Source: Clostridiales bacterium (GTDB lineage Bacteria > Bacillota > Clostridia > TANB77 > SIG350). From it: a stretch of DNA of 64,000 bases. The DNA lies in the NCBI GenBank assembly GCA_015056545.1, contig SVGE01000004.1, positions 36,721-100,720 on the forward strand, in the 5' to 3' direction. Positions within the stretch are counted from its first letter, which is position 1. Each line of letters begins with the position of its first letter. Below the pieces are notes generated by a model. It saw only the letters and a list, made by a program, of their open reading frames with translations. It made no database searches and was not told the origin of the DNA. Made by a program: the position numbers and the translations under genes. This document shows, piece by piece, positions 7,045-30,597 of the stretch.

Positions 7045-8157
7045 TCATCCCATTAAAATTACTTTTTGTCTTTGTCCACTAATATTTAATAATATTCCTA
7101 TTGCTACCATATTAGAAAGCATTGAACTACCACCATAACTTACAAAAGGTAAAGGTACACCTGTTATTGGTAATAATCCCATTGTCATCCCTATATTTTC
7201 TGTTGCATAAAATATAAACATCCCTGCTATTCCTAATGCAACTAATGCACCAAAATTATCTTTTGCACTTCTAGATATATATATACAACGTAAAATTAAA
7301 GCCATAAATAAAACTATTACTGGTCCAGCAACTATAAATCCCATTTCTTCTGCAATTACAGCATAAATAAAATCTGTTGTTTTAGGACTTAAATACCCTA
7401 ATTGAGTTTGATTTCCTTCACCAAGGCCCATACCCGCAAGTTTTCCAGAACCAATAGCTAATTTTGATTGTGTAACATTATATCCAATTCCTAATGGATC
7501 AAGAGATGGATCTAAAAATACTTTTATCCTATTTTTAGCATGTGTTGGCAAAACAAACATATATAATAATGGCACTATTATTACTACTGCTAATATCGCA
7601 CCAGCTATATATTTTTTACTTAAATTAGACACAAATAACATAAGAACAGTAAATACCAAAAATACCATAGCTGTTCCATAGTCTGGTTGCATAGCAATAA
7701 GTACAACCGGAACCATAACTAATATACCTACTAATAATAAGTTTTTTACTTTATTTATTTCATCATCACTTTTTTTATTAATTTTTGTAATAACCGCAGA
7801 TAATGAAATAATTGTAAATAACTTAGCTACTTCTGATGGTTGAAATTGCATAAATCCTAAATTAAACCAACTTGTAGCACCATTAATAGGGTTTGTAAAT
7901 AATACTGCAATAAGTAGTAAAATAGCTATTCCATATAAGACATACCATATTTTTTCATAAAACTCATAATTTATAAAAGTAACTACTACCATAACAACAA
8001 AGCCAATTCCTGCCCACATTATTTGTTTATTTAATTCAGAAACACCACTTACATCTTTGGTTGCACTCCATAATGCAATACAACCAATACAAATAAGTAT
8101 TCCAATTATTACTATTAATTTATAATCTAGATTTTTTAGTAATTTTTTATTCATCAT
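7045..8157 (-). CDS. rodA: SEDS-family peptidoglycan glycosyltransferase (RodA/FtsW/SpoVE)
   Basis: About 10 TM segments, and SEDS motifs MQFQPSE and GVPLPFVSYGGSS. Confidence 0.8.
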   Translation of the reverse strand: MMNKKLLKNLDYKLIVIIGILICIGCIALWSATKDVSGVSELNKQIMWAGIGFVVMVVVTFINYEFYEKIWYVLYGIAILLLIAVLFTNPINGATSWFNLGFMQFQPSEVAKLFTIISLSAVITKINKKSDDEINKVKNLLLVGILVMVPVVLIAMQPDYGTAMVFLVFTVLMLFVSNLSKKYIAGAILAVVIIVPLLYMFVLPTHAKNRIKVFLDPSLDPLGIGYNVTQSKLAIGSGKLAGMGLGEGNQTQLGYLSPKTTDFIYAVIAEEMGFIVAGPVIVLFMALILRCIYISRSAKDNFGALVALGIAGMFIFYATENIGMTMGLLPITGVPLPFVSYGGSSMLSNMVAIGILLNISGQRQKVILMG

Positions 8158-8324
8158 TTCACTCCTTAGGTAAATATATTACCACAAAATTAAATAAAAG
8201 TATATACAAAAAAAAGAAAAAATAGGCAAAAGTTCTCAAGTAAAATTGAGCAATTATTCTCATATAAAAAATAAAAAAATAAAAACACCTTTTTATGAAA
8301 AAAGTCCCGATCACCCACCCCAAA

Positions 8325-8348
8325 TAGTAAATACGGTACAGCTCTAAC
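8325..8348. repeat. 9-bp-stem hairpin at the module boundary (acggtacag-ctctaa-ctgtaccgt); paralogous copy at 21040-21060
   Basis: Perfect inverted repeat overlapping the stop codon of the small ORF. A near-identical hairpin and G-rich flank are present at the second module. Confidence 0.6.
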
Positions 8349-8736
8349 TGTACCGTATCCTCTCTTTCATTAAATATCCATATATTTCATTTATTTTATT
8401 TCGTTTAGTTATATATCTATTTGCTATATTATATATTTCATTATATTTATTTTTATAATTTTCTTCTAATTCTATATTATATTTATTACTTCTATCAATT
8501 ACCTTATAATTTATACATTTAGCTTCTAATCTACTAATTACCTTATTTAATGCTACTTCTGGAAAACCACAACTATTTATATTTCCTTCTACTTTTTTAA
8601 TCTGATAATTATACATATATGAAATTATCTGACTAGCATCTTTTCCATATACATTTAAGAATTTACCTACCCTTATCATTACTATATCTTCTTTATGTAA
8701 TTCTTTAATTATTCTTACTATATTTATTATTCCCAT
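8344..8736 (-). CDS. small protein resembling MutS mismatch-recognition domain I (stand-alone), encoded at the Avd-like position 3' of a DGR-target-like gene
   Basis: 130 aa. The stretch IVMIRVGKFLNVYGKDASQI...NSCGFPEVALNKVISRLEAKCINYKVI aligns with the GxFYE...DA...GxP...L core of MutS domain I. This is recalled from memory, not searched. Confidence 0.5.
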   Translation of the reverse strand: MGIINIVRIIKELHKEDIVMIRVGKFLNVYGKDASQIISYMYNYQIKKVEGNINSCGFPEVALNKVISRLEAKCINYKVIDRSNKYNIELEENYKNKYNEIYNIANRYITKRNKINEIYGYLMKERIRYS

Positions 8737-8926
8737 ATCTTCTCCCCATCTAGCTTCCCAAAAAAGAACAGTTTAGAGAGTTGACTTGGGCTTCGTGGGC
8801 GGAAAATATTCTCCTCCCACGAGCTTAAATCCTTTATTATTTCAATATTTTTATTTTAATTTTTTCTATATTACTATTTCCAGCGCCTCGCAAGGTGACA
8901 AAAAGCCCCCTTGCGCGCAATGCTAG

Positions 8927-10195
8927 CTACTTTAATTCCCATGCTTTTTCTTCTGTTGTGCCTCCATCTGGTTCATCTATTACTTGGATATCAGAGCTTA
9001 GAGTAACTACTGGGCGCAAACCATACGCGCCTTCATTATCGTAGCCACTAGAAGTGAATACTTGGGTCCAGTTCAAGCCGCCTAAGTCCACACAGCGCAC
9101 AGCAAAGCAAGCCACATCACAGTCGAACCATATATCCACACAAGAAGAAGACAGCCAGTATTCACTGTTTCCAAAGTTTCCAAAGATTAAGTCCTTTTCT
9201 GTATCTGTCGCTACTGTTGCATCTGTTAAACTTGATTCTACATAACCATAAGAATTTGGAGCATATTCTCCTAGTTCTTTTCCTTCTTCTGGTACTTTTC
9301 TATTTGCTATTGTACTTACTCCTGTCGCTCCACTTGCTTCTAACTCTGCTATTGTTCTTACCCCTGCTGGTACATTATGACCTTCTTCATCTGTTCCAAA
9401 ATAGTCCCAGTTTATTTCGTTATCGCCCCATGTTCTGTCATCTTTTAATAGTTCATTTACATCTTCTATTTTTAAGTTTCTTCCTCCATATACTACTCTA
9501 CATATTTCATCTAATCTATCTGGACCGTATGCATATCCATTTGCTCCGCTTAGATATATATTCTCTACTGGTTCTGCACTTACTAATGTTACTGTATTTT
9601 CATCTTTTTTTAATACTCTCCACATTATATCTTGGTATCCTATTTCATAGCTTGCTGTAGAATAAAGCTTTTTATATATCCATTCTCTTTCATCTTCTGA
9701 TACTGTATATGTTCCTTGTTTCTCTTCTGGTATATTATAATTCACATAATGTCCTACTTGTAACTTTTTTACTACTGAATTTTCTGGTATTGCTCCTTTT
9801 CCTATTCCTAATTCTGCTAACCATATGTTATATGGGTCTTCAGTTCTTGTTCCTAATACTATCTCTCCATTACTTATTGCTATTAAGTCTTTATATTCTT
9901 CTTTTAATTCGGGGATTATTTCTTTTATTTTTTCATATTCTGTTTCATTATATAATCCACCTTCTCCATTTCCGGTTGCTAATTCTATTTGTTTTTCTGC
10001 ATTCTTTACTGCTAGTATTTCTTGATATGTTCGTATATCGCTTTTAAATACTGCTTCTTTTGCCTTCTCTATTATTCCACCTTCCATAAAAGTTACAATA
10101 ACTGCTGCTGTTAATATTATTAGCACAATTATTGTTACGATTAAAGCAACTAGCGATATACCTGATGTTTTTTTACTATTCTTTAAATTTTTCAT
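8927..10195 (-). CDS. pilin-like N-terminally anchored protein with C-terminal CLec-fold-like hypervariable region (putative DGR target), copy 1
   Basis: AGGAGG RBS. N-terminus MKNLKNSKKTSG-ISLVALIVTIIVLIIL (basic leader, Gly, hydrophobic helix). YWLSSS, then a ~117-nt variable segment, then YGLRPVVTLSS. The first 115 aa are 95% identical to the paralog at 21524-22747. Confidence 0.7.
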   Translation of the reverse strand: MKNLKNSKKTSGISLVALIVTIIVLIILTAAVIVTFMEGGIIEKAKEAVFKSDIRTYQEILAVKNAEKQIELATGNGEGGLYNETEYEKIKEIIPELKEEYKDLIAISNGEIVLGTRTEDPYNIWLAELGIGKGAIPENSVVKKLQVGHYVNYNIPEEKQGTYTVSEDEREWIYKKLYSTASYEIGYQDIMWRVLKKDENTVTLVSAEPVENIYLSGANGYAYGPDRLDEICRVVYGGRNLKIEDVNELLKDDRTWGDNEINWDYFGTDEEGHNVPAGVRTIAELEASGATGVSTIANRKVPEEGKELGEYAPNSYGYVESSLTDATVATDTEKDLIFGNFGNSEYWLSSSCVDIWFDCDVACFAVRCVDLGGLNWTQVFTSSGYDNEGAYGLRPVVTLSSDIQVIDEPDGGTTEEKAWELK

Positions 10196-10467
10196 AATCT
10201 CTTCTCCTCCTTAAAATTTAATCTTTTGTTATTACACAATTTTATTGTATAACACTTTCAGTTTTACTTTAACTGTTTCGTTGTAGTTTTTTGTTTTTTA
10301 TTACCTCCTTCCTCGGCTCTTTTTATTTTATTATTACCAAAATATATTTTTATATAATTTGGCAAACTAAAAGAACCTAAGACTACATTACGTTTTCTCG
10401 TAATATATTCTTAAGTTCTTTGCAAAAATTGGCATGTCAATTAAAGATGTTTTTATACTATAAACAT

Positions 10468-10477
10468 CCCCCCCCCC
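10468..10477. repeat. homopolymeric C10 tract (G10 on the coding strand) upstream of the copy-1 target gene
   Basis: Counted directly. The paralogous position in copy 2 has C8. It lies ~25 bp upstream of a TTGACA hexamer on the gene strand. Confidence 0.8.
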
Positions 10478-10654
10478 TAGTATTTAGCACTTTATGGCAT
10501 ATTGCTTTGGTTTTATTTGACATTTTCTTACACCTCTTTTCTTGTTTGTATACTATCATAGGCGTTTTAAAATTTCAATTGTTTTTTTGAAAAAAGGCTA
10601 AAAAATAATTAGAATACATTTTGTACTCTAATTATTTTCTTTATATATTTTTAC

Positions 10655-11410
10655 CTATTTAATTTTTTCAAAATAAATGTGTATATTAGACAATACTCCA
10701 TCATTAAAATAGAATTTTAACTCACTTCCATCTTCTCCATCAATATATGATGTTCCATATATTTTTTTAATTTCTTCTTCTGTTGTTACACCTACATGAA
10801 TATTACCTAATGAAGTACCTTCTGTTACATATACATTATGATAATATACTATATCACAATCATATATATTTTTAGGAGTATTTGAATTATTTTTTATTGC
10901 ACCATACCCAAAAGATAAATTAAAATTACAGTCAATAACAGTATTAGGCTCTACTATAATATTTTCTATTGCTTTTTCTTCTACGATATCTATAGTTTCA
11001 TATCCTAATAAATCTATATATTCTTGAGTATCTCTAACCAAACCAGATATTTCATCATTATTTATTTGATCTTTAATTGTTTGGTAATCTTTAACATCTA
11101 TCTCTTTTACTTCATTAAGTCTGCTAATACTTATTCCTAATTCTCTTGGTGTTTTTGTTAAGTCATAATCTACACCATCAATTGTAATAACACTAATATC
11201 TTTTTTACTTATTTTTTTATATTTATTTTCTTCTTCCAAAAATTCTTCATCTTCTAAATAATATCCATCATCATTTACATCATAATCATAATCATTATTA
11301 TCTTTATCATTATTGTTTGTTACAGCTTTAATAATACAAGCTACAACAAGAATTGCAAATATTGCTATCAATATTAATACTAACATTGTTATTCCATTTT
11401 TCTTTTTCAT
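10655..11410 (-). CDS. hypothetical membrane-anchored acidic protein
   Basis: N-terminal TM (ITMLVLILIAIFAILVVACII) followed by a D/E/N-rich region. Confidence 0.5.
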   Translation of the reverse strand: MKKKNGITMLVLILIAIFAILVVACIIKAVTNNNDKDNNDYDYDVNDDGYYLEDEEFLEEENKYKKISKKDISVITIDGVDYDLTKTPRELGISISRLNEVKEIDVKDYQTIKDQINNDEISGLVRDTQEYIDLLGYETIDIVEEKAIENIIVEPNTVIDCNFNLSFGYGAIKNNSNTPKNIYDCDIVYYHNVYVTEGTSLGNIHVGVTTEEEIKKIYGTSYIDGEDGSELKFYFNDGVLSNIHIYFEKIK

Positions 11411-11434
11411 ATCTTTTCTCCTTTTATATTAAAT

Positions 11435-12826
11435 TTATTTTTTCAAAAACTCTTTGTATCCTTTATATGCCATATAACAGTCATGTTTACTTGTAACTTC
11501 ATATGGTGAATGCATAGATAATACTGGAACACCACAGTCTATAACATCTGCACCTTTATCTGCAACTATATATGCGATAGTTCCGCCACCACCTTCATCA
11601 ACTTTTCCAAGTTCACCTGATTGGTATCTAACATTATTATCTTCAAATATTTTTCTAACATATGCAACATATTCTGCACATGCTTCACTTGAACCAGATT
11701 TTCCTCTAGCACCTGTATATTTTAATAAACAAATACCTTTTCCAATAAATGAACTATTTTTAGGATCTGATACTCCTGCAAATGTAGGGTCAAATGCAGC
11801 ATCTACATCTGATGATAACATTTTTGTATTTATATATAGCTTATTTAATAAATTATAACTTTCTTGTTTTAATTTAACAGCCATTTCCATTAACATGAAA
11901 TCTAATGTATTTGAACACATCCCAGTATTACCCATACTTCCTATTTCTTCTTTATCCATTAACATTGCAACACATGTTTTGTTTGGAATTTCAGTTAAAT
12001 CCATAATAGCTTTTGCTGAAGCAAATGAACATACCCTATCATCTTGACCATAACCAGCTATCATACTTTTATCAAAACCAACAAGTTTTGCTTCAAAGTT
12101 TGGTACTAATTCAAGTTCTGAACTTATGAAATCAGCTTCTGTTATTCCATATTTTTCATTTAATATTTTTAATATATTGTATTTTACTTTTTCATTAGCC
12201 TCTTTATCTTCACTTGGAATATTACCAACTAAAATATTTAAGTCTTCTCCTTCTATTCCTTCAGATAATTTCTTTTCCATTTGTCTTCTAGCTAAATGTG
12301 GTAATAAATCTGTTATAACAAAGATTGGATCATCTTTATCTTTACCAATAGATATTTCTACTTTTTCACCATTAGTTTTAATAATAACACCTCTTATTTC
12401 TAATGGAATAGTTACCCATTGATATTTTTTAATTCCACCATAATAGTGTGTTTTAAATAAAGCAAACCCTTCTGATTCATATAATGGATTTGGTTTTAAA
12501 TCTATTCTTGGTGAATCAATATGTGAACCTATTAAATTAATTCCTTTTTCTAATTGTTCATTACCGATAACTGCTAATAAAATATTTTTATCTCTGTTAA
12601 TATAATATACTTTATCACCTGGTTTTAAAGTTTTACATTTATCTAATTCTTTAAATCCTTGTTTTTTAGCTAATTTTTCAACATATTTAACACATTCTCT
12701 TTCTGTTTTACATTCATTTAAAAAATCAATATATTCGTTTGTATATCCATCTAATGTTTTCATTTCTTTTTTATTTAATGTATCCCAACCGCTTTTTCTA
12801 TTTAATAATAACTCGTCTTTTTTCAT
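11435..12826 (-). CDS. M18-family aminopeptidase
   Basis: 463 aa. GSHIDSPRIDLKPNP and the conserved metal-binding Asp/Glu/His pattern of M18/M42 peptidases. Confidence 0.75.
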   Translation of the reverse strand: MKKDELLLNRKSGWDTLNKKEMKTLDGYTNEYIDFLNECKTERECVKYVEKLAKKQGFKELDKCKTLKPGDKVYYINRDKNILLAVIGNEQLEKGINLIGSHIDSPRIDLKPNPLYESEGFALFKTHYYGGIKKYQWVTIPLEIRGVIIKTNGEKVEISIGKDKDDPIFVITDLLPHLARRQMEKKLSEGIEGEDLNILVGNIPSEDKEANEKVKYNILKILNEKYGITEADFISSELELVPNFEAKLVGFDKSMIAGYGQDDRVCSFASAKAIMDLTEIPNKTCVAMLMDKEEIGSMGNTGMCSNTLDFMLMEMAVKLKQESYNLLNKLYINTKMLSSDVDAAFDPTFAGVSDPKNSSFIGKGICLLKYTGARGKSGSSEACAEYVAYVRKIFEDNNVRYQSGELGKVDEGGGGTIAYIVADKGADVIDCGVPVLSMHSPYEVTSKHDCYMAYKGYKEFLKK

Positions 12827-13136
12827 TAAAAACTCTCCTCCTTAATACATATTATTTACAATACACTTACATTATATGTTTAATATTTTTAAAAGTCAAT
12901 TTTTATTTATTAAATTACATTTTCTTTATATAATTTTTTATTAATTTATGTCAATATTTACATTTTTTCCTTATGTATTTTTGTTGTTTTTGACATTTTT
13001 TAATATTTTTTTATTATTTATAAATTTAGAAATGTTACAGAATTATTACAAATATACTTTTTTACCATTTTCTCTTATCAAATGCAATTTTATGTGATAT
13101 AATGTCGATGGAAAATATATTTTAGGAGGTTTTTTT

Positions 13137-13388
13137 ATGAATAGATGTTCACGTTGCGGATGTTTTTTTGTAGGAAATGATACAGTTTGCTATAACTGTG
13201 TACCATATGATAATAATGATAGAGCTAAGTTAACTGATTTTTGTCAAGGCAATGAAGAAGTTACTTATGAAAATATATTATATAAAACTGGCATTGCACC
13301 TTCTAACTTATCAAGATTTCTAGAAATGCCAGATTATGCAAAAATAGCAAAAATAGTAGACAAAAAGGGAGTGGAATTTTATGAATAA
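13137..13388 (+). CDS. small zinc-ribbon protein (CxxC...CxxC), overlapping tyrS start
   Basis: Extended -10 TGTGATATAAT at ~13094, AGGAGG RBS, ATG at 13137. [11 protein letters not shown]...CYNC cysteine pairs. 8-nt overlap with tyrS. Confidence 0.55.
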
Positions 13389-14604
13389 TGTTTGGGACAT
13401 ACTTGAAGAAAGAGATTACATCGAACAAGCTACTTTTGGTGATGAATTAAAAGAATGGTTAGGAAAAGAAAAAACTACATTCTATATTGGTTTTGATCCA
13501 ACTGCAGATAGCTTACATGTTGGACATTTTATCTCTTTAATGGTTGCTTCACATATGCAAAAAGCTGGTCATACACCAATACTTTTAATTGGTGGTGGTA
13601 CTGCAATGATAGGCGATCCAAGTGGTAAAACAGATATGAGAAAAATGCTTACTAAAGAAGAAATTAATCATAATGTTGAATGTTTTAAAGTTCAAATGTC
13701 TAAATTTTTAAGCTTTGAAGGTGAAAACAAAGCTAGAATAGTAAATAATGCTGATTGGTTATTAGACTTAAATTATGTTGAATTCATTCGTGATATAGGT
13801 GTTCATTTCTCTGTAAATAGAATGCTTACTGCTGAATGTTTTAAACAAAGATTAGAAAGAGGTTTATCTTTCTTAGAATTCAACTATATGTTAATGCAAT
13901 CTTATGACTTTTTAGAATTATTTAATAATTATGGTTGTAGATTAGAACTAGGTGGAAATGACCAATGGTCAAATATTTTAGGTGGTGTTGAATTAATTAG
14001 AAAAGTAAAACAAACACCTGCATTTGGTCTAACATTTAAATTATTAACAAATTCAGAAGGAAAGAAAATGGGTAAAACAGTATCTGGAGCTTTATGGCTA
14101 GATCCTAATAAAACATCTCCATATGAATTTTATCAATATTGGATGAATATTAATGATGCTGATGTTAAAAAAGTTCTTTCTTTACTTACATTCTTACCAA
14201 TGGATGAAGTAAATAGATTATCTAGTTTAGAAGGTAGTGAAATTAACCAAGCTAAAAAAGTAGCTGCATATGAAATTACTAAAATTGTTCATGGTGAAGA
14301 TGAAGCTAATAAGGCAAAAGAAGCTGCAGAAGCATTATTTGGGCAAGGTGGAGATATTTCAAATATGCCAACTACTCAAATAAATAAAGCAGACTTTACA
14401 GGAAATATTTTAGATGTTTTAGTTATAACAAACTTAGCTCCATCAAAAAGTCAAGCAAGAACACTAATTGCTCAAGGTGGTATTAGTGTTAATGATATTA
14501 AAATAACAGATATTAATCACATAATATCTGAAGATGATTTTACTGATGGATATGTAATTGTTAAAAAAGGTAAAAAAGTATTCCATAAAGTTGAATTAAT
14601 ATAG
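13381..14604 (+). CDS. tyrS: tyrosine--tRNA ligase
   Basis: HIGH motif (LHVGHF), KMSKS motif (KMGKT), and C-terminal S4 domain. Confidence 0.9.
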
Positions 14605-14607
14605 TTT

Positions 14608-14640
14608 TTAAAGTACTGAAATTTATCAGTACTTTTTTTT
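14608..14640 (+). terminator. rho-independent terminator after tyrS
   Basis: agtactga-aattt-tcagtact hairpin followed by T8. Confidence 0.75.
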
Positions 14641-14705
14641 ATAAAAATATTGAAAATATCTTTTTACGTGATATAATTATACCAAAAGTAAAGGAGGTTT
14701 TTTTT

Positions 14706-15350
14706 ATGGATAAATTACAAGTATTATCTAAACTAAAAGAAGAAAAATTAGTTGCTGTTGTTAGAGCTGAAAGCAAAGAACAAGGCGAAAAAATTATTGA
14801 TGCAATTGTTAAAGGTGGAATTAATTTCATAGAAATTACTATGACAGTTCCTGGTGCAATTGATGTTATTAAAGAATTATCTAATAAATATAAAGATAAT
14901 AAAGATATTGTTATAGGTGCTGGTACAGTATTAGATGCTGAAACAGCTAGAATGGCTATTCTTGCTGGAGCTAAGTATGTTGTTAGCCCATCATTAAGTG
15001 TTGATACTATAAAAATGTGTAACAGATATAGAGTCGCTGTTATGCCAGGTGTAATGACTGTTAAAGAAGCTGTTGAAGCTTTAGAAATGGGTGTAGACAT
15101 ATTAAAAGTATTCCCTGGTAATGCATTTGGTCCAGACATAATAAAAGCATTTAAAGGTCCACTTCCACAAGCTAACTTTATGCCAACTGGTGGTGTATCA
15201 ATAGATAATGTAGATAAATGGCTTGCTGCTGGTGCTGTTGCACTTGGAACAGGAAGTAATTTAACAGCTGGTGCTAAAACAGGTGATTATGATTTAGTTA
15301 CTAAAACTGCTGCTGAATTTGTAGCTGCTGTTAGAAATTATAAAAAATAG
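14706..15350 (+). CDS. eda: 2-dehydro-3-deoxyphosphogluconate / KHG aldolase
   Basis: 214 aa. KDPG aldolase family pattern (VAVVRAE, EITMTVPGA, GAGTVLD). Confidence 0.8.
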   Translation: MDKLQVLSKLKEEKLVAVVRAESKEQGEKIIDAIVKGGINFIEITMTVPGAIDVIKELSNKYKDNKDIVIGAGTVLDAETARMAILAGAKYVVSPSLSVDTIKMCNRYRVAVMPGVMTVKEAVEALEMGVDILKVFPGNAFGPDIIKAFKGPLPQANFMPTGGVSIDNVDKWLAAGAVALGTGSNLTAGAKTGDYDLVTKTAAEFVAAVRNYKK

Positions 15351-15365
15351 TAAAGGAGTTTTGTT

Positions 15366-16460
15366 ATGTTAAATATTAAAGATAAAAAAGACTGTAAATA
15401 TGATGAAGTTTCACTTGGTGAAATAATGTTAAGACTTGATCCAGGTGAAGGAAGAATAAGATGTGCAAGAGAGTTCAAAGCTTGGGAAGGTGGCGGAGAA
15501 TATAATGTTGCTCGTGGTTTAAAAAAATGTTTCAAATTAGATACTGGTGTAATTACTGCATTTGCTGAAAATGAAATTGGTTATTTGTTAGAAGATTTCA
15601 TAATGCAAGGTGGTGTTGATACATCTTTAATAAAATGGATGAAATATGATGGTATTGGTAGAAGTGTAAGAAATGGTATTAACTTTACTGAAAGAGGATA
15701 TGGTGTTCGTGGTGCTGTAGGTACATCAGACAGAGCTAATACTGCTATTTCAAAAGCAACTGCAGAAGATTTCGATTTTGAATATATTTTTGGAACTTTA
15801 GGTGTAAGATGGTTGCATACAGGTGGTATATATGCTGCACTTTCTGAAGAAACTTCTAAAACAGTAATTGAAGCTATTAAAACAGCTAAAAAATATGGAA
15901 CAATTGTATCTTATGACTTAAACTACAGACCATCTCTTTGGAATGGTATTGGTGGAAAAGAAAAAGCTATTGAAGTAAATAAAGAAATAGCAAAATATGT
16001 TGATGTTATGATAGGAAATGAAGAAGATTTTACAGCTTGCTTAGGTTTTGAAATTGAAGGAAATGATGAAAACTTAAAAGAATTAAACATAGATGGATAC
16101 AAAAAAATGATAGATAATGTTGTAAAAGAATATCCAAACTTAAAAGTAGTTGCAACAACATTAAGAGAAGTAAAAACAGCAACTGTAAATGATTGGAGTG
16201 CATTATGCTGGGCAGAAGGTAAAATATATAAAGCTAATGACTATAAAGGATTAGAAATATTAGATAGAGTTGGTGGTGGAGATAGCTTCGCATCTGGTTT
16301 AATCTATGGATTAATGACATATCAAGATGCTGAAAAAGCTGTTAATTATGGTGCTGCACATGGTGCTCTTGCTATGACTACTCCAGGTGATACAACTATG
16401 GCTAATTTAAAAGAAGTAGAAAATTTAATGAAAGGTGCTTCTGCTAGAGTACAAAGATAG
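15366..16460 (+). CDS. kdgK: 2-dehydro-3-deoxygluconokinase (PfkB family sugar kinase)
   Basis: PfkB signature GGGDSFASGLIYGL. Immediately follows eda (KDG/KDPG pathway pair). Confidence 0.75.
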   Translation: MLNIKDKKDCKYDEVSLGEIMLRLDPGEGRIRCAREFKAWEGGGEYNVARGLKKCFKLDTGVITAFAENEIGYLLEDFIMQGGVDTSLIKWMKYDGIGRSVRNGINFTERGYGVRGAVGTSDRANTAISKATAEDFDFEYIFGTLGVRWLHTGGIYAALSEETSKTVIEAIKTAKKYGTIVSYDLNYRPSLWNGIGGKEKAIEVNKEIAKYVDVMIGNEEDFTACLGFEIEGNDENLKELNIDGYKKMIDNVVKEYPNLKVVATTLREVKTATVNDWSALCWAEGKIYKANDYKGLEILDRVGGGDSFASGLIYGLMTYQDAEKAVNYGAAHGALAMTTPGDTTMANLKEVENLMKGASARVQR

Positions 16461-16482
16461 TATTATTAGAAAGGTAAACTAT

Positions 16483-16674
16483 ATGGAAAATAATAAAATT
16501 GTAACTGTTATAGGAATTATACTAATTGCCATTTTAGGATGGATTTTAGTATCAAATATATTTTTCGCTGAAATGGGAAGACAAGTCCACAAAGAAGCAA
16601 ATGACGTTATTAATAATACAGCTGATGATATAAAAAAGTTAGAAGAGAATTTAAAAAATCTAGAAAATAATTAA
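16483..16674 (+). CDS. small single-TM protein
   Basis: Start moved to internal ATG (MENNKIVTVIGIILIAILGWILV) to avoid overlap with kdgK. A bidirectional terminator follows at ~16685-16730. Confidence 0.4.
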   Translation: MENNKIVTVIGIILIAILGWILVSNIFFAEMGRQVHKEANDVINNTADDIKKLEENLKNLENN

Positions 16675-16744
16675 CTATAATAACCAATAAAAAATGAAGT
16701 AAGTTTTTTAGCTTGCTTCATTTTTTTATTGATTATATTATGCT

Positions 16745-17404
16745 CTATAATATTTTATTTCCATTTATCACTAATTCAAATCTAGCTCCTAAAAAATTAG
16801 CTGCTTTTTTTGAAAGTAACATCCTATAAGTAAATATTTCAAAATATTCCATTATTTGAGTTATCTTAGTATCAATTACTAAATCTAACGTTATTGTTTT
16901 TGTTTCTTTATTTGGTATTATTTTAGATTTTTGAACAGAATAATTAACTCTATCATGTATATCAAAATTAGTTTTATTTGGATTACGTACTCTACTTTTA
17001 TGAACATCTGATTTATCTGCTAATATTAACGCAGCAGTTATAGGACTTACTGGTGTTCCTGTTCCTTCATCATGATTTCCTATTGCCATCATAATTTCAG
17101 CCGCTTCTGTATTATCCAATCCAATTTCTAAAAGTGTATAATATGCAAGTATTGCTCCTAAATGAGCATGGTCATTTCTATTTACAGCATTACCAATATC
17201 ATGAAGGTATCCTGCGATTTTACCAAGTTCAATTGTTCTTTCATCATATCCAAATTCTTTTAAAATATTTCCTGTTAATGTTGCTACAAATTTTGCATGT
17301 CTTGTTGAATGTTCTGTATATCCTAATTCATCTAATTGTCTTTGACAATTAATTATAAATGTTTTTATTTTTTCATTATTTTCAATATCTTTTAATTCTA
17401 TCAC
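16745..17404 (-). CDS. HD-domain phosphohydrolase
   Basis: H...HD motif (STRHAKFVATL...GYLHDIGN). Confidence 0.75.
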   Translation of the reverse strand: MIELKDIENNEKIKTFIINCQRQLDELGYTEHSTRHAKFVATLTGNILKEFGYDERTIELGKIAGYLHDIGNAVNRNDHAHLGAILAYYTLLEIGLDNTEAAEIMMAIGNHDEGTGTPVSPITAALILADKSDVHKSRVRNPNKTNFDIHDRVNYSVQKSKIIPNKETKTITLDLVIDTKITQIMEYFEIFTYRMLLSKKAANFLGARFELVINGNKIL

Positions 17405-17406
17405 TT

Positions 17407-17859
17407 TTATCTCCTCACATTACTAAAATTTACACCTATAATACCACCAATAATACCTGATAGCATAGCTGTTATTATCATTATAATTGAATATTTATCT
17501 AAAGTAAAGCCTACTTTTGTTAAACTACTAATTAAATAAACTAATCCTATATATATTGTAGAAATAATTACACCATTAACTAAACCATTACTTCCAATTT
17601 GTCTACAAAATATTAAGGTTGATAAAAATATAGAAAACATGGTTATTCCAATTACTACTGTTGGTATTGTACTATCTGGAACATTAGTATATGCTAAAAC
17701 AAATGAATATATTACTACTAATAAATATGTAAATGCAAATGTAAAAAAACATGCTTTAATAATACTCTTAATCTTATTATTTTCTCGTATTTCTTTAACT
17801 TCTTTATTCAAAAAAATCACCTCATAATATATGTATGAGGCAACCTTTATTTTATTCAT
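17407..17859 (-). CDS. small multi-pass membrane protein
   Basis: 150 aa with four hydrophobic segments. Confidence 0.5.
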   Translation of the reverse strand: MNKIKVASYIYYEVIFLNKEVKEIRENNKIKSIIKACFFTFAFTYLLVVIYSFVLAYTNVPDSTIPTVVIGITMFSIFLSTLIFCRQIGSNGLVNGVIISTIYIGLVYLISSLTKVGFTLDKYSIIMIITAMLSGIIGGIIGVNFSNVRR

Positions 17860-18541
17860 TTAATATTAAATTTGTTCTTATTATCTGATAATCATATATT
17901 GCAAGACCATTTTTTTCAATCGCTTGAATTATATAATCTGGCCTTAAATTATCCTTACTACCAGCTTTTGCTTTCATTTTAATACAAATATCATATTCAT
18001 CATTATCCACATATTTTTCCACATATACATTAATAATAAATGATTTAATATCTATATCTACTTTTGGCTTATCTGGTTTTACTTTTTTATCTACTAATAT
18101 TTCATTTGAATTAAATATATCTATTACTTTTTCAGCTAATTCATCTTTATTATTCTCATGTTCAAATTTAATATATACTTCATATTCAGACTCAATAACT
18201 TTTGCCATTAAGCTTTTATTATCTGTAACATAATTTGCTGTAATTATGTTAAAACCATTTGGTAAATTATTATTTAATCTTTCAATTAATTTATTTTCCT
18301 CCACATCTTCTTCAAGTTCAATTTCAATAATTTCAGATTTACTTATTAATCCTGAACCTGATGGAAGTGCAAATACTATATTAGGTTTTGGATTAAAACC
18401 TTGTGAAAACTTTAATTTAATGTCTGCTCTTCTAAATGTTCTATCAAACATAGTCATTGTATCTAAATGTCCTAAATATTTAACTTCATCATTTTTTTCA
18501 TATATTAGCCTATATTTACTCAAAGCAAACACCTCCTCCAA
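17852..18541 (-). CDS. radical-SAM-associated protein (DUF2344/TIGR03936-like)
   Basis: Translationally overlapped with the upstream TIGR03960-type radical SAM gene, a conserved gene pair. Confidence 0.6.
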   Translation of the reverse strand: MEEVFALSKYRLIYEKNDEVKYLGHLDTMTMFDRTFRRADIKLKFSQGFNPKPNIVFALPSGSGLISKSEIIEIELEEDVEENKLIERLNNNLPNGFNIITANYVTDNKSLMAKVIESEYEVYIKFEHENNKDELAEKVIDIFNSNEILVDKKVKPDKPKVDIDIKSFIINVYVEKYVDNDEYDICIKMKAKAGSKDNLRPDYIIQAIEKNGLAIYDYQIIRTNLILNE

Positions 18542-20363
18542 ATGATGCTATGCCACACCCTGAGCAGCTCTGTCTACAATTAGGAGTTACTTCGCCCTTT
18601 AAGGCTTTATCTAATTCTTTTTCAAAAAATTTTCTACTAACACCCATATTAATAAATTCCCATGGAAGTATTTCATCAAGTCTTCTTACTCTTTGTGCAT
18701 AAAACTCTTTACTTAAGCCACTTATTTCAAATGCTTTATTCCATTTTTGAATATCGAAATGTTCATCCCAACCATCAAATTTAGCACCTTGTTTCCATGC
18801 TTCATATATTAATTTAGATACTTTTCTATCACCTCTTGCAATAACCGCTTCCATAATACTTACATCTGGGTTATTCCAATTAAATGATACATTTCTATTC
18901 TTAGTAGCATTTTGCAAAAATTCTATTTTTTCTTGTATTAGTTTTTTGTCATTTTGACCAGCCCATTGAAAAGTTGTAAATGGTTTAGGAACAAATGTAG
19001 ATACACTAACTGTTACTTTTACATTTCTGCCTCTTTCATTTTTAGGTATTTTAAAAAACATATCTACAATTTTATTAGCTAAATCTGCTATTCCCTGCAA
19101 ATCTTCAAATGTTTCTGTTGGAAGTCCCATCATAAAATACAATTTAACAACTGTCCAACCTTTTCTAAATGCAATATCACAAGCTTTAAATATTTCCTCT
19201 TCATTAACATTTTTATTAATAACATTTCTAAGTCTTTGAGTACCTGCTTCAGGTGCTAATGTTAAACCAGATTTTCTTACACTATTCATTTTATCTAATA
19301 ATTTATCATCTATTGAATCTATTCTAAGTGATGGAAGTGATAAATTAATCTTCTTCTCTTTTGTCATATCTATAAGGTTGCTAGCTAATTCATGAAATTT
19401 TGTATAATCACTAGTACTTAATGATACAAGTGACATTTCTTCATAACCAGTACTATCTATACTTTCCTTTGCTATTTCAAGCAATCTATCTACACTTTTT
19501 TCTCTAACAGGCCTATATATATATCCTGCTTGACAAAATCTGCAACCACGAATACATCCTCTAAAAATTTCTAACATTGTTCTATCGTGTATAACACTAC
19601 TATATGGAACTATAGTTTTTGTAGGGAAAAACACTTTATCCAAATCTTTAATAATTCTTTTAGTAATATTTATTTTCTCATTATCTTTTCTTTTAAATTC
19701 AGAAATTGTTCCATCTTCATTGTATTTAGTTTCATATAGACATGGTACATATACACCTTGCACTTTGTCTACTTTTTCTAAAAATTCTTTTCTTGTCCCT
19801 TTACCATCTTTCCATTTAGCATATACATCCATTATCTCATTTATTACTTCTTCACCTTCACCTATAACAAAAAAGTCAATAAAATCTGCTAATGGTTCTG
19901 GATTACATGCACATGGCCCACCTGCTATAACAAATGGCATTCCTTCTTCTCTATCTTTTGCATATATTGGAATATTAGCTAAATCAAGCATATTTAATAT
20001 ATTTGTATATGTTAATTCATATTGAAGTGTAAATCCTACAAAATCAAAAGTCTTTATACTGTCTTTTGTCTCTAGTCCATATAATTCAATATTGTTTTTT
20101 CTCATCAAATTTTCCATTTCTATTGAAGGTGCAAATACTCTTTCACAATATGTATCTTCTCTATTATTCAAAAGATAATATAATATTTTCATACCTAAAT
20201 ATGACATACCTATTTCGTATACTTCTGGGAAACAAAAAGCAAACCTGATTTTTACATCATCAGGCTTTTTTATTACTTGATTTAATTCATTTCCAGTATA
20301 TATAATTGGATTTTGCACTGTAAGTAATTGCTTATTTGTTAATTTATTCATTTTCTGCCTCAC
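18516..20363 (-). CDS. B12-binding-domain radical SAM protein (TIGR03960-like)
   Basis: CIRGCRFCQAGY CxxxCxxC motif and an N-terminal B12-binding-like domain. 615 aa. Confidence 0.75.
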   Translation of the reverse strand: MRQKMNKLTNKQLLTVQNPIIYTGNELNQVIKKPDDVKIRFAFCFPEVYEIGMSYLGMKILYYLLNNREDTYCERVFAPSIEMENLMRKNNIELYGLETKDSIKTFDFVGFTLQYELTYTNILNMLDLANIPIYAKDREEGMPFVIAGGPCACNPEPLADFIDFFVIGEGEEVINEIMDVYAKWKDGKGTRKEFLEKVDKVQGVYVPCLYETKYNEDGTISEFKRKDNEKINITKRIIKDLDKVFFPTKTIVPYSSVIHDRTMLEIFRGCIRGCRFCQAGYIYRPVREKSVDRLLEIAKESIDSTGYEEMSLVSLSTSDYTKFHELASNLIDMTKEKKINLSLPSLRIDSIDDKLLDKMNSVRKSGLTLAPEAGTQRLRNVINKNVNEEEIFKACDIAFRKGWTVVKLYFMMGLPTETFEDLQGIADLANKIVDMFFKIPKNERGRNVKVTVSVSTFVPKPFTTFQWAGQNDKKLIQEKIEFLQNATKNRNVSFNWNNPDVSIMEAVIARGDRKVSKLIYEAWKQGAKFDGWDEHFDIQKWNKAFEISGLSKEFYAQRVRRLDEILPWEFINMGVSRKFFEKELDKALKGEVTPNCRQSCSGCGIASFGGGVCFE

Positions 20364-20868
20364 TTATTATTTTTCTTATTTGAGCAACAACTTGTTCTGG
20401 ATTTTCCACATAAGGAATTTTAATTCCTGCACTAATTTCAACATTAGTTTTAATATGAATATTTCCTACATTCATAGCTCTTCCCCATACATGTTGGTCT
20501 GTTGTTACTTCTGTTATATTTTTATATAAAATTTCTTTAGAATTTTTATTAAAGAAATTATCTTCAAATCTTACAAAATCTTTATAGAACTTATATGATA
20601 TTTTTCCTGTATGCATATACATTACAAATGTTCTATATAAATATAATATAGGGATTAAAACAACTGCTATAATTCTTAAAGCACCCATAAACATATTTAC
20701 TAGAGGTTCCATTTCTGGTAAAGTATTAATTCCTATAGCTCCAAATATAAATGTTAGTATAAAAAAAACAACTGCTACACCTAACATCCATATATTCCAT
20801 TTTAAATAATCTATAATTCTTACTTTTGGCTCAATTTTTAATAATACTTGATTTTCCATAATCTTCAC
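20344..20868 (-). CDS. membrane-flanked PH-domain (bPH_2/YdbS-like) protein
   Basis: Two N-terminal TMs followed by a ~100 aa soluble domain. Confidence 0.5.
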   Translation of the reverse strand: MKIMENQVLLKIEPKVRIIDYLKWNIWMLGVAVVFFILTFIFGAIGINTLPEMEPLVNMFMGALRIIAVVLIPILYLYRTFVMYMHTGKISYKFYKDFVRFEDNFFNKNSKEILYKNITEVTTDQHVWGRAMNVGNIHIKTNVEISAGIKIPYVENPEQVVAQIRKIISEAENE

Positions 20869-21089
20869 TCCTTACAAAAATATTATACTATTAATATATA
20901 TTTTTTGCAAGTAGGAAAATATACTGTAACATTCACTTCATATATGTAAATTTTTAAAATATGAGTAAATATTGTAAACAAACAATTTACACGCTCAAAT
21001 TTTAAAAATCCCGACCACCCACCTCAGACATGTAATAAGGTACAGCTCTCACTGTACCTTATTCTCCCATGATAATTTTTTTTACCTGT

Positions 21090-21480
21090 TTAATTATTTT
21101 AAATTTTTCAGATTTCATATACTATTTTTTCTATTTCTACTATTTTACCATTGATTTCATCATTAGTTAGGTTTTCCAGCAAATATCCATATATTTCATT
21201 TACCTTATTTCGTTTTGTTATATATTTGTTTGCTACATTATATATTTCTTCATATTTATTTTTATAATCTTCGTCTATTTCTACATTATATTCATTACTT
21301 CTATCAATTACCCTATAATTTATTTTTTTATCTTCTATTCTACTAATTACCTTATTTAATACTGTTTCTGGTAAAACCTTTAGCTTTTACATTACCTTCA
21401 ATTTTTTTAATCTGCTTAAATTTACATATATGAAATTATCTGACTAGCATCTTTTCCATATACATATATAAATTTAACTC
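21090..21480 (-). pseudogene. decayed paralog of the MutS-domain-I-like small ORF (copy 2)
   Basis: DNA is ~80% similar to 8344-8736, with indels, a missing N-terminal segment and no ORF of at least 60 aa. Confidence 0.6.
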
Positions 21481-21523
21481 CTCTTACCTTTACTACGTCC
21501 GACGCCCCCCACGCGCTTTCGTC

Positions 21524-22747
21524 CTATTTTATTTCCCAGGCTGTTTCTTGTGTATCTCCTCCTGCTTCTTTATCTACTACTTGGATGCTAGAGCTTAGAG
21601 TAACTACAGGGCGCAAACCATACACGCCGTCGTTCTCGCCACCAATCGAAGTGTACAAGTAGTACGCGCCCACGCGGTCGCCGCCCACATTGCGCACATC
21701 GAAGTCCGCAACGTCGTCGTAGAAACGAACATAAGCGCAAGACGAAGACAGCCAGTAGTACTTATCTCTAAATATCATGTCTTTTGCTTTTTCACTCGCT
21801 TCTGTACATTCTGATTTATTATAGTAGTAATATAACTCTAATTCTTCATAATTGTCGGGTTTGCTCCAACCACTTACATCATATTCTTCCTCTGCTATTG
21901 CGTCTCCAAATGTAAACCCTATTTCTTTATTTACTTGATTATACTCTTCGTCATCATAACATGGCTCTGGTTCATATTTTAATACTTCATTTACATCTTC
22001 TACTCTTAAGTTCCTTCCTCCATATACTTCTGCACATATTGCATCTAATGCTCCTGGTCCTTTTGTAAATCCTTCTTCTCCATATAGGTATATATTTTCC
22101 ACTGGGTCTGCACTTACTAATGTTACTGTGCTGCCATTATTTTTTAGTACTCTCCACTTTATTTCTTCGTTATATCCTATTACTTCTTCTCCTTCAGTAT
22201 ATGACCAACTTTCATCTCCATCATTATATATCCAATTTGTTGCTTCTGCTCCCAGTTTTTCGGTTATATTATATGTCTTTCTTTCTCCTTCCGGTATACT
22301 ATATTTTACATAGTCTCCTTCTTCTAATAATCCTATATCTGATGTTTCTCCTTCTCCTATCCCTAATTCTGCTAACCATTCACTATATGGGTCATCAGTT
22401 CTTGTTCCTAATACTATTTCTCCATTACTTATTGCTATTAAATCCTTATATTCTTCTTTAAATTCGGGGATTATTTCTTTGATTTTTTCATATTCTGTTT
22501 CATTATATAATCCGCCTTCTCCATTTCCGGTTGCTAATTCTATTTGTTTTTCTGCATTCTTTACTGCTAGTATTTCTTGATATGTTCTTATATCACTTTT
22601 AAATACCGCTTCTTTTGCCTTCTCTATTATTCCACCTTCCATAAAAGTTACAATAACTGCTGCTGTTAATATTATTAATACAATTATTGTTACTATTAGT
22701 GCAACTAAGCTTATACCTGATGTTCTACTATTTCTTAAATTCTTCAT
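21524..22747 (-). CDS. pilin-like N-terminally anchored protein with C-terminal hypervariable region (putative DGR target), copy 2
   Basis: Paralog of 8927-10195. N-terminal 115 aa and C-terminal 30 aa are conserved. The variable segment 21624-21741 is ~58% GC and encodes DDVADFDVRNVGGDRVGA using NNC codons. Confidence 0.7.
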   Translation of the reverse strand: MKNLRNSRTSGISLVALIVTIIVLIILTAAVIVTFMEGGIIEKAKEAVFKSDIRTYQEILAVKNAEKQIELATGNGEGGLYNETEYEKIKEIIPEFKEEYKDLIAISNGEIVLGTRTDDPYSEWLAELGIGEGETSDIGLLEEGDYVKYSIPEGERKTYNITEKLGAEATNWIYNDGDESWSYTEGEEVIGYNEEIKWRVLKNNGSTVTLVSADPVENIYLYGEEGFTKGPGALDAICAEVYGGRNLRVEDVNEVLKYEPEPCYDDEEYNQVNKEIGFTFGDAIAEEEYDVSGWSKPDNYEELELYYYYNKSECTEASEKAKDMIFRDKYYWLSSSCAYVRFYDDVADFDVRNVGGDRVGAYYLYTSIGGENDGVYGLRPVVTLSSSIQVVDKEAGGDTQETAWEIK

Positions 22748-23020
22748 AATTTTTTCCTCCTTTGAATTTTAAATTTGTTATTACACAATTTTATTGTGTA
22801 ACACTTTTGGTTTAATTTCAACTGTTTTGTTGTAGTTTTTTTATTTTTCTTTTTACTACCTCCTTCCTCGGCTCTTTATTTTATTATTGCCAAAATATAT
22901 TTTTATATAATTGGGCAAAACAAAAGAACCTAAGACTACATTACGTTTTCTCGTAATATATTCTTAAGTTCTCTATATTTTTTGGCATGTCAATTAAAGA
23001 TGTCCTTATTCTATAGAACA

Positions 23021-23028
23021 CCCCCCCC
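23021..23028. repeat. homopolymeric C8 tract upstream of the copy-2 target gene
   Basis: Counted directly. The paralogous tract in copy 1 is C10. Confidence 0.8.
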
Positions 23029-23233
23029 TAGTATTTAGCACTTTCTGGCACTTTACTCTGGTTTTATTTGACATTTTCTTACACCTACTTTCTTGTTTGT
23101 AATATATCATAGGCATTTCATCTTTTCAATAGTTTAAATACAAATATATCTTTTATTTATCATATTTTTTCTTTACTATATGAATTATTCATGTTAAAAT
23201 TTTCTTGATAGAAAATATAAAGGAGGAAACTTT

Positions 23234-23893
23234 ATGAATATAAATATACTAAATGATTTATCTTATGGAATGTATATTATTTCTACTAAATATATGAATA
23301 AAAATGTTGGTTGTTTTGTTAATACTGTTAGTCAAATAACTTCTGAAAACCCAATAATATCTGTAAGCATAAATAAAAGCAACTATACTAATGAAGCTTT
23401 AAATATTGGGAATAAATTTGCTATATCTATATTATCTGAAAAAACAGATTCTCAATTAATTGGTAAATTTGGATTTTTTTCTTCAAAAGATACGGATAAA
23501 TTTGATGGAATTGAATATTCAGAAATTTGTGGCATTCCTGTTGTAACAAATAATATATGTGGATATTTAATTTGTGAAGTTATTAATATAATTGACTGTG
23601 AAACACATAATATAGTATTAGCAAGAGTTATTGATGGAGAGAAATTAACAGATAATATACCAATGACATATAAATATTATCATGAAGTTATAAAAGGAAA
23701 AGTTCCAAAAACTGCTCCTACATATAAAAAAGAAAAAGTGGAGGTGAAAAATATGGGTAAATATGTTTGCAAAATTTGTGGTTATGTTTATGATAACTCA
23801 AAAGAAGAAATAAAATTTGAAGATTTACCAGATAGCTGGGTATGTCCATTATGTGGTGTTCCAAAAAACATGTTTGAAAAAGTTGAAGAATAA
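23234..23893 (+). CDS. flavin reductase-like domain fused to C-terminal rubredoxin (high-molecular-weight rubredoxin)
   Basis: AAGGAGG RBS. N-terminal FMN-binding split-barrel-like region. C-terminal CKICGYVYD...[10 protein letters not shown] rubredoxin motif. Confidence 0.7.
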
Positions 23894-29368: not shown

Positions 29369-30571
29369 TTATATATCCTTTAGACTTACTTCTAAATTTT
29401 CAAATATATGTGACTTTATATTTTCACCAAAACTATATTGCTGTTTTAATTCATATTTATTTTTTTCATTTAAAACAAATATGTCTGTTATTCTCGTTAC
29501 AGGATCTACTATCCAATATTCTTTTACTCCATATTTTTCATATATCTTATATTTTCTTATTCTATCATGTGTAACATTACTAGATAATATTTCTACTACT
29601 AGTGTTGGTGCTCCATATATTCCATCAGATTTTATCTTTTCCATATCACATACTATCATTATATCTGGCTGAACCACAACTGATGTATTTTCTTTTTCTT
29701 CCCCATCCAAAAATACATCAAATGGTTCAACATATGATTTGCATTTTTTCCCCTTTAAGAATCTTTTAAACTCAAACGAGATTTCACCTAATATATCTTG
29801 ATGAATTTCTTTTGGACTTGCAAATAAAAATATTTCGCCATATATTAACTCATACCTTTTATCTCCAAATATTGCTTCTGCCTCCTCATATGTATAATTG
29901 TTTATTCTATATGCTTCTCTTGGCTCTTGTAACATAGATATATTTTTATTTTCTTTTTTTATTTCATAATCTTCATTATAATATTCTTTTAAATTTACTT
30001 GCAAATTTTCAAATATATATGATTTTATATTTTCATCAAAACTATATTGCTGTTTTAATTCATATTTATTTTTTTCATTTAAAACAAATATATCTGTTAT
30101 TCTCGTTACAGGATCTACTATCCAATATTCTTTTACTCCATATTTTTCATATATCTTATATTTTCTTATTCTATCATGTGTAACATTACTAGATAATATT
30201 TCTACTACTAGTGTTGGTACTCCATATATTCCATCAGATTTTATCTTTTCCATATCACATACTATCATTATATCTGGCTGAACCACTATTTCTCTATCTT
30301 CTTTTTCTTTTCCATCTAAAAAAACATCAAATGGTGCTATATATGATTTGCATTTTTTTTGTTCAAAAAAATTGCCAAATACTCTTGAAATCTTTCCTAA
30401 TATATCTTGATGAATTTCTTTTGGACTTGCAAATAAAAATATTTCCCCATATATTAACTCATACCTTTTATCCCCAAATATTGCTTCTGCCTCCTCATAT
30501 GTATAATTGTTTATTTTATATGCTTCTCTTGGCTCTTGTAACATAGATATATTATCTTTTTCATTTTCCAT
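29369..30571 (-). CDS. tandem double Uma2-family (DUF820, PD-(D/E)xK) endonuclease fusion
   Basis: Two ~200-aa repeats (NISMLQEPREAY...IVDPVTR) encoded by ~600-bp DNA repeats about 97% identical (29400-29990 vs 30000-30590). RBS-supported start at MENEKD. Confidence 0.7.
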   Translation of the reverse strand: MENEKDNISMLQEPREAYKINNYTYEEAEAIFGDKRYELIYGEIFLFASPKEIHQDILGKISRVFGNFFEQKKCKSYIAPFDVFLDGKEKEDREIVVQPDIMIVCDMEKIKSDGIYGVPTLVVEILSSNVTHDRIRKYKIYEKYGVKEYWIVDPVTRITDIFVLNEKNKYELKQQYSFDENIKSYIFENLQVNLKEYYNEDYEIKKENKNISMLQEPREAYRINNYTYEEAEAIFGDKRYELIYGEIFLFASPKEIHQDILGEISFEFKRFLKGKKCKSYVEPFDVFLDGEEKENTSVVVQPDIMIVCDMEKIKSDGIYGAPTLVVEILSSNVTHDRIRKYKIYEKYGVKEYWIVDPVTRITDIFVLNEKNKYELKQQYSFGENIKSHIFENLEVSLKDI

Positions 30572-30597
30572 TTTATATTTCTCCTTTCTATCTCTAT

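Follow-up and report, generated by a model that had tools for sequence, protein, structure and literature searches.

An orphan, C-terminally truncated copy of the MSL accessory gene of DGRs beside a duplicated target gene in a Clostridiales genome

Results

Two paralogous DGR target modules in the window

The window, that is, the whole 64-kb stretch of DNA analysed here, belongs to a Clostridiales bacterium MAG and contains two paralogous modules, which were delimited by repeat finding and alignments at ~8300-10590 (module 1) and ~21004-23135 (module 2). Each module consists of a leader of ~360 nt, a gene whose product has 422 or 407 aa, a MutS-I-like stretch and a common terminator-like hairpin. 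The features are as follows, where "the cassette" is the complete DGR cassette on contig L007 of the same MAG.

8333..8356, minus strand: terminator-like hairpin at the 3′ junction common to both modules (module 2 counterpart, 21039-21058)
8344..8736, minus strand: msl paralog (MutS-like DGR accessory gene), 130 aa, identified by ORF call, Pfam MutS_I match, fold and 79% identity to the cassette MSL
8790..8824, minus strand: GC-rich hairpin between the target stop and the msl start of module 1 (DNA fold -10.9 kcal/mol, z -2.85)
8883..8918, minus strand: second GC-rich hairpin, within a ~95-nt insert unique to module 1 (-11.2 kcal/mol, z -2.0)
8927..10195, minus strand: DGR target paralog 1, 422 aa, pilin-like and hydrophobic at the N-terminus, with the VR inside the C-terminal domain
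9006..9158, minus strand: VR1, a variable-repeat relic, placed by comparison with the TR; invariant among assemblies
10225..10590, minus strand: leader of module 1, upstream of the target and common to module 2 and the cassette by sequence conservation
21064..21118, minus strand: stub of avd in module 2, first ~17 codons (three-way alignment with L007)
~21108..21496, minus strand: msl pseudogene of module 2 (alignment; deletion, frameshifts and stops)
21501..21523, minus strand: 5′ half of the post-target GC hairpin of module 2, the 3′ half having gone in a 119-nt deletion (alignment)
21524..22747, minus strand: DGR target paralog 2, 407 aa
21603..21755, minus strand: VR2, placed by comparison with the TR; invariant among assemblies
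22774..23135, minus strand: leader of module 2 (sequence conservation)

The two target proteins are almost identical over their N-terminal 130 residues and have a hypervariable C-terminal segment bounded by the invariant motifs YWLSSSC and YGLRPVV, with 46-51% GC in a genome of 25% GC (25.3% for the window). This hypervariable and GC-rich segment therefore has the appearance of a DGR variable repeat, and the msl ORF does adjoin a DGR target gene, as the original prediction held, target paralog 1 being the carrier of VR1. By alignment, the hairpin at 8790..8824 is the diverged counterpart of the post-target hairpin of the cassette. Within the 64-kb window, no RT was found by searching for YxDD in long ORFs, no TR or third repeat copy by a VR-derived degenerate pattern, and no avd ORF. 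The TR and RT, which had been taken to be missing, are indeed absent from the window, but both are present on L007 in the same MAG.

A leader of ~250-360 nt precedes all three target paralogs (10225-10590 and 22774-23135 on the minus strand of the window, and ~8330-8640 on the plus strand of L007), and is marked by a run of G8-10 and, at its end, by a terminator-like hairpin and a T-run (AGAACTTAAGA...TCTTAGGTTCTTTT), an arrangement which could exert attenuator or riboswitch-like control over the pilin-like target genes. An Rfam scan of 8000-23400 gave no match, the leaders being without a match at E<0.1, and promoter predictions in the promoter/terminator scan were no better than those on shuffles. 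An exact-protein look-up of the GTG-start ORF at 20344-20868 likewise returned no match.

The ORF at 8344-8736 encodes a stand-alone MutS domain I

The msl ORF has an ATG start with an RBS (GGGGAG) 7 nt upstream, and its product matches the sequence quoted in the original prediction. By protein database search it is P0001, annotated as "hypothetical protein E7311_03785" of a Clostridiales bacterium MAG, and the identical sequence occurs on 23 contigs. It matches Pfam PF01624 (MutS_I) over residues 6-79 with an E-value of 6.3e-9 and 36.5 bits (curated cut-off 20.6), and no further MutS domain was found in the Pfam scan, so that domain I stands alone within 130 aa, just as had been read from the sequence; NCBIfam gave only a weak match, to the MutS N-terminus. 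In a profile of five close homologs, GKF-x-x...DA aligns with the mismatch-recognition motif GKFYE...DA of human MSH6, and in the window protein the Phe of Phe-X-Glu is kept (F26), while the Glu position is occupied by Asn.

From 5 sequences AlphaFold2 modelled the protein poorly (pLDDT 47), but from 35 homologs it reached a pLDDT of 89.1 and a pTM of 0.80, with an alpha/beta core of six strands followed by a long C-terminal helix. In a Foldseek search against the PDB this second model obtained 41 matches at E<=1e-3, and among the matches listed all are MutS, MSH3, MSH6 or "mismatch repair protein" chains, aligned over ~80-95 columns with an rmsd of ~2 Å and a TM(query) of 0.5-0.6, at 12-26% identity to MutS structures. 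Therefore, the Pfam score and the Foldseek matches place the likeness to MutS domain I far beyond chance, and the structural comparison bears out the original assignment. The modelled fold is not a helical bundle, and the bAvd profile PF22296 had no match to the protein at E<=1.

Although the frame is open, the protein is truncated, as a 105-nt deletion took its last ~20 family-conserved codons and fused on a new tail, KERIRYS; full-length members align with the family profile over its whole length, including the C-terminal segment that is absent here. Its pI of 9.48, compared with 7.64 for the cassette MSL and family means of 7.8-8.2 (sd 1.3-1.7), was counted as a sign of decay. The counterpart in module 2 had been called a pseudogene at 21090-21480, and this is confirmed at ~21108-21496, where a 119-nt deletion took the RBS and the first 15 codons, two 1-nt insertions shift the frame, and stops occur in every frame.

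A complete DGR cassette on another contig of the same MAG

The TR and RT were located outside the window through the genomic context of the cassette MSL paralog (P0003, E7311_05620), a protein of 146 aa from the same MAG that is 79% identical to the window msl product. The cassette on L007 is complete and has the order leader, target (VR0), GC hairpin, msl, avd, TR and RT.

L007 8689-9912: cassette target, 407 aa
L007 10001-10441: cassette msl, 146 aa
L007 10431-10775: cassette bAvd, overlapping msl by 11 nt
L007 10802-10954: cassette TR, 153 nt, inside the 395-nt spacer between bAvd and RT
L007 11170-12126: cassette RT, 318 aa, with motifs IGNMTSQ and YQDD

As in DGRs in general, which have an RT with the [I/L]GxxxSQ motif and a TR/VR pair differing at TR adenines, the L007 RT has the motif, and the mismatches of both VR0 and VR2 to the TR are adenine-biased. 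HRDC was not found among the called neighbours of the cassette. Directly 3′ of the RT, at L007 12413-13286, lies a PD-(D/E)XK "transposase" (PDDEXK_2, Rpn-like) together with an HTH_Rpn_C ORF; it may have had a part in the segmental duplications.

Both modules derive from one duplication of the cassette 5′ part

Three-way alignment of the cassette and the two modules showed that each module is a copy of the 5′ part of the cassette, extending from the leader to ~codon 17 of avd. In module 2 the msl stop survives, overlapped by the start of avd, which runs on to ~codon 17 (21064-21118), and both modules have an identical end junction and two in-frame indels in common; therefore, both must have come from one duplication. 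The 105-nt loss in module 1, which took the last ~20 msl codons together with the avd stub, came later. Since the modules were copied with the cassette 5′ part, msl is present in the window by descent and not as a substitute for Avd, and the stub in module 2 indicates that avd was lost because the copied segment ended within it, and not because another gene took its place. The notion that each module was equipped with its own accessory gene accordingly gives way to one of partial cassette duplicates, with an avd stub left in module 2 and static VRs.

The leader-to-avd segment of the cassette was thus duplicated to two other chromosomal sites, the window modules; module 2 then lost half of its hairpin and the msl start, and module 1 kept an open msl frame but lost its 3′ end. 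The window msl is there by hitch-hiking with the duplicated target, and is either a decaying relic or a spare trans-acting copy.

In another uncultured bacterium (L019), an orphan target (1-2049) is followed by a perfect GC hairpin after its stop and by a truncated msl remnant (2131-2304), 3′ of which neither avd nor RT was found; the situation of the window therefore recurs.

The cassette repeat varies among assemblies while the window repeats are static

Compared with the TR, VR0 has 33 mismatches, 31 of which fall at TR adenines, and VR2 has 28, of which 26 are at adenines and 2 at the end positions of the repeat, whereas VR1 has 29 adenine and 28 non-adenine mismatches. That VR1 is served by the L007 TR was rejected on account of these 28 non-adenine mismatches and of its lack of variation among assemblies.

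The cassette locus is present in eight metagenome assemblies, six of which hold the entire VR0, and all six VR0 sequences differ from each other, with all but one of the pairwise differences at TR-adenine positions; outside VR0 there are no differences across 3.2 kb of the cassette, and all eight loci have one and the same TR. Two of the contigs (L032 and L033) begin inside VR0 and a third (L031) just upstream of it, as would be seen if assemblies broke up where the VR differs within a sample. Six loci carry VR1 exactly as it stands in the window; the 422-aa target recurs unchanged on 18 contigs, and the 407-aa target with VR2 on 17. Window and cassette loci come from the same sample series (3300018495 and ERZ27248370, for example, each give both a VR1 locus and a VR0 locus), and VR0 therefore serves as an internal control for the static VRs. 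The cassette DGR is active in nature, and VR1 and VR2 are fixed in the sampled populations while VR0 varies. VR2 is thus a recently frozen copy, still perfectly TR-compatible but with half of its downstream hairpin deleted, and VR1 an older, diverged relic.

Substitution patterns of the window msl

The pairwise dN/dS between the cassette msl and the module 1 msl is 0.35. When the changes were polarised with the three sequences (cassette, module 1 and module 2), with 4.47 nonsynonymous per synonymous change expected at random, the module 1 branch received 10 synonymous and 27 nonsynonymous changes (omega ~0.6, P = 0.12 vs neutrality), the module 2 pseudogene branch 3 and 23 (omega ~1.7), and the remaining branch, made up of the cassette lineage and the shared module ancestor, 3 and 0. 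In simulations, the 123-codon frame stayed open after 37 random substitutions in 11% of cases. None of the 27 nonsynonymous changes hits any of the ~15 invariant or near-invariant family positions, for which the chance was estimated at ~0.03.

MSL proteins form a large family linked to DGRs

An exhaustive profile search recovered 828 representative clusters at E<1e-3 and 230 at E<1e-10, mostly of 140-150 aa. The Phe at the intercalating position is invariant in 49 of 49 members, and the position F+2 is H, N, R, E, K or Y. The linkage to DGR RTs, on which the original prediction turned, was found throughout, as each of the nine full-length homologs examined has an RT no more than 5 kb away and belongs to a cassette with that RT and an Avd gene or domain. 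Among species-representative genomes, four of five loci (L015-L018) have the order target-msl-avd-TR-RT, the fifth being the L019 orphan. Among four distant members (25-33% identity), three (L020-L022) have the order target-TR-avd-RT-three ORFs-msl, and in the fourth (L023) MSL and Avd form one protein of 245 aa, encoded immediately upstream of the RT. Seven loci yielded TR/VR pairs in which adenines account for 89-100% of the mismatches. A rule by which MSL is always directly 3′ of the VR-bearing gene was rejected, because L020 and L021 have their VR and TR before avd-RT, with msl ~3 kb downstream of the RT.

MutS_I and bAvd are fused in several 245-aa proteins (P0185-P0189; L023 4082-4819), which are encoded between the DGR target/TR and the RT. 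Such natural fusions provide Rosetta-stone evidence that MSL and Avd act together.

Discussion

The window msl is an orphan, C-terminally truncated extra copy of MSL, a known DGR accessory family, a reading to which we give a probability of about 0.85. Nothing fundamentally new is thereby added to the inventory of DGRs, as the MSL accessory family has been found again: the class, which the original prediction took to be undescribed, has been in print since 2017, when MSL (MutS-like) was named as one of four DGR accessory classes on the basis of 16 examples of 112-283 aa and pI 7.2 +/- 1.7, always with avd and never with HRDC, in an "Architecture D" that includes the Legionella DGR (Wu et al., NAR 46:11, online 2017; PMC5758913), and Msl has again been noted in Bacteroides DGRs (the Bfr, Bth and Bun elements; bioRxiv 10.1101/2024.11.15.621889). 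What is added by this work is the duplication history, the contrast of static and active VRs, a family census and the MSL-Avd fusions. The locus is a clean natural example of DGR target multiplication, in which the copies have stopped diversifying while the master VR changes between samples.

The cassette paralog agrees with the MSL of Wu et al. in size, MutS-I homology and a DGR cassette with avd and without HRDC, and the pI of the family (7.8-8.2 +/- 1.5 here) is close to the published 7.2 +/- 1.7. The window copy, which is truncated and has a pI of 9.5, is found beside a static duplicated target and not in a cassette. When matched to the published class by its described features, both may be assigned to MSL; the lack of an RT and a TR beside the window msl concerns its location, not its homology, and so makes it an orphan paralog rather than a non-member. 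Bacteroides Msl likewise has homology to the MutS mismatch-recognition domain and shares its DGRs with an Avd-like protein, the surface proteins diversified there being pilus or adhesin-like; the two Msl groups are likened by description, and the Bacteroides copies reside in cassettes of Bacteroidota, while the window belongs to a Clostridia MAG. With domain I of MutS, MSH6 and MSH3 (PF01624), the window msl shares the fold, the G-x-F...DA...GFP core and the intercalating Phe. However, it is without the connector, core, clamp and ATPase domains and cannot signal to MutL, it has Asn in place of the Glu of Phe-X-Glu, a position that varies in the family, and there is an extra long C-terminal helix. 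Avd/bAvd (PF22296) and MSL are both small DGR accessory proteins genetically coupled to the RT, and are fused in some genomes, but their folds are unrelated, Avd being a helical bundle and MSL alpha/beta, and avd is a separate gene in the cassette.

These comparisons bear directly on the position of Avd, in which the original prediction had placed the MutS-I protein. A new accessory factor replacing Avd in self-contained modules without TR and RT might be suspected from the window itself, which has a MutS-I stretch directly 3′ of the target in both modules and no avd ORF. It is very unlikely and is contradicted by several findings: the cassette paralog coexists with bAvd, which it overlaps by 11 nt, module 2 still has avd up to ~codon 17, each of the nine full-length homologs examined is accompanied by an Avd gene or domain, and the family is the already published MSL with its alpha/beta MutS-I fold. 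It is scarcely credible that the window msl is a fragment or remnant of a housekeeping mutS, or a mismatch-repair-related factor unconnected with DGRs; for this speak only the Pfam MutS_I match and weak sequence matches to NCBIfam MutS and PDB MSH6, whereas proteins of ~145 aa that stand alone form a large family whose members are consistently in DGR cassettes, the identity to MutS structures is just 12-26%, and no mutS-derived sequence flanks the ORF.

Whether this orphan MSL copy is still a functional, selectively kept gene, as an extra MSL in trans for the master DGR or locally at target 1, is more evenly balanced, and we put it somewhat below even chances. The intact ORF and RBS, the retention of every family-invariant residue, the ~11% likelihood of an open frame under neutrality, the occurrence of the same sequence on 23 contigs and the pairwise dN/dS of 0.35 to the cassette copy all speak for it, but the omega of ~0.6 on its own branch is not significantly below 1, the conserved C-terminal ~20 residues are gone, its counterpart in module 2 is a pseudogene, and the orphan target of L019 is likewise accompanied by a truncated remnant. 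Local service is further opposed by the static VR1, whose 28 non-adenine mismatches to the TR mean that no local diversification is seen. A more specific proposal is that MSL acts locally with the post-target hairpin and that the truncated module 1 core has been kept because it still works as a mismatch or heteroduplex shield against host MutS for the DGR; it draws on the fact that the sole still-diversifying VR has an intact hairpin and a full-length msl in cis, and we consider it rather improbable. If it were true, msl would be a retroelement-encoded anti-mismatch-repair factor, and the MSL-Avd fusions would place MSL inside the RT-Avd complex.

Regarding the role of MSL in general, the protein appears to be a bare MutS mismatch-binding domain with a C-terminal helix and without the clamp, ATPase or MutL-signalling parts. 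In company with Avd-RT it most likely binds the mismatch-dense cDNA:VR heteroduplex or the primed target, without licensing repair. The mutagenised strand would thereby be fixed more readily in the face of host MutS, which would help adenine-mutagenised cDNA to escape it. The rationale for such an anti-mismatch-repair role is that deletion of host mutS raises retrohoming 5-10 fold in B. ovatus (bioRxiv 10.1101/2024.11.15.621889). Against it stand the Bordetella phage DGR, which according to a citation in PMC5758913 does not require mutS, and an E. coli reconstitution in which mutS deletion was without effect on one reporter. Heteroduplex shielding is what we infer for MSL, since no experimental work on its function was found in the literature searched. 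Leads on this function come from the extent of the family (230 clusters at E<1e-10), from a Phe that never varies while the Glu position does, from the msl-avd overlap and from the MSL-Avd fusions, and they fit the recent finding that host MutS limits mutagenic retrohoming.

Additional features of the MSL loci and the window

Between the RT and msl, the loci of the distant family branch have three conserved ORFs that match no Pfam entry (L020 2174-4997, L021 2008-4924 and L022 1858-4702), with products of ~500-660, 240-320 and 70-85 aa, and these are possibly further DGR-associated genes.

The slot beside the flavin reductase/rubredoxin gene (window 23234-23893) holds other pilin-like paralogs in other strains or samples. 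In L012 (2293-3510, 405 aa) and L013 (2556-3521, 321 aa) these occupy the slot equivalent to window 21524-22747 and have the same N-terminal ~130 residues, with non-DGR C-termini and different downstream genes; module 1 in L003 has a different upstream context. The common N-terminal region of the targets seems to be a hot spot of recombination, or else to give rise to chimeric assemblies.

Elsewhere in the window, tandem 609-nt repeats that are 88-100% identical (29369-31188, minus strand) correspond to three tandem domains of the Uma2 family (PF05685, putative restriction endonuclease), two of them fused in a 411-aa ORF and one in a 196-aa ORF.
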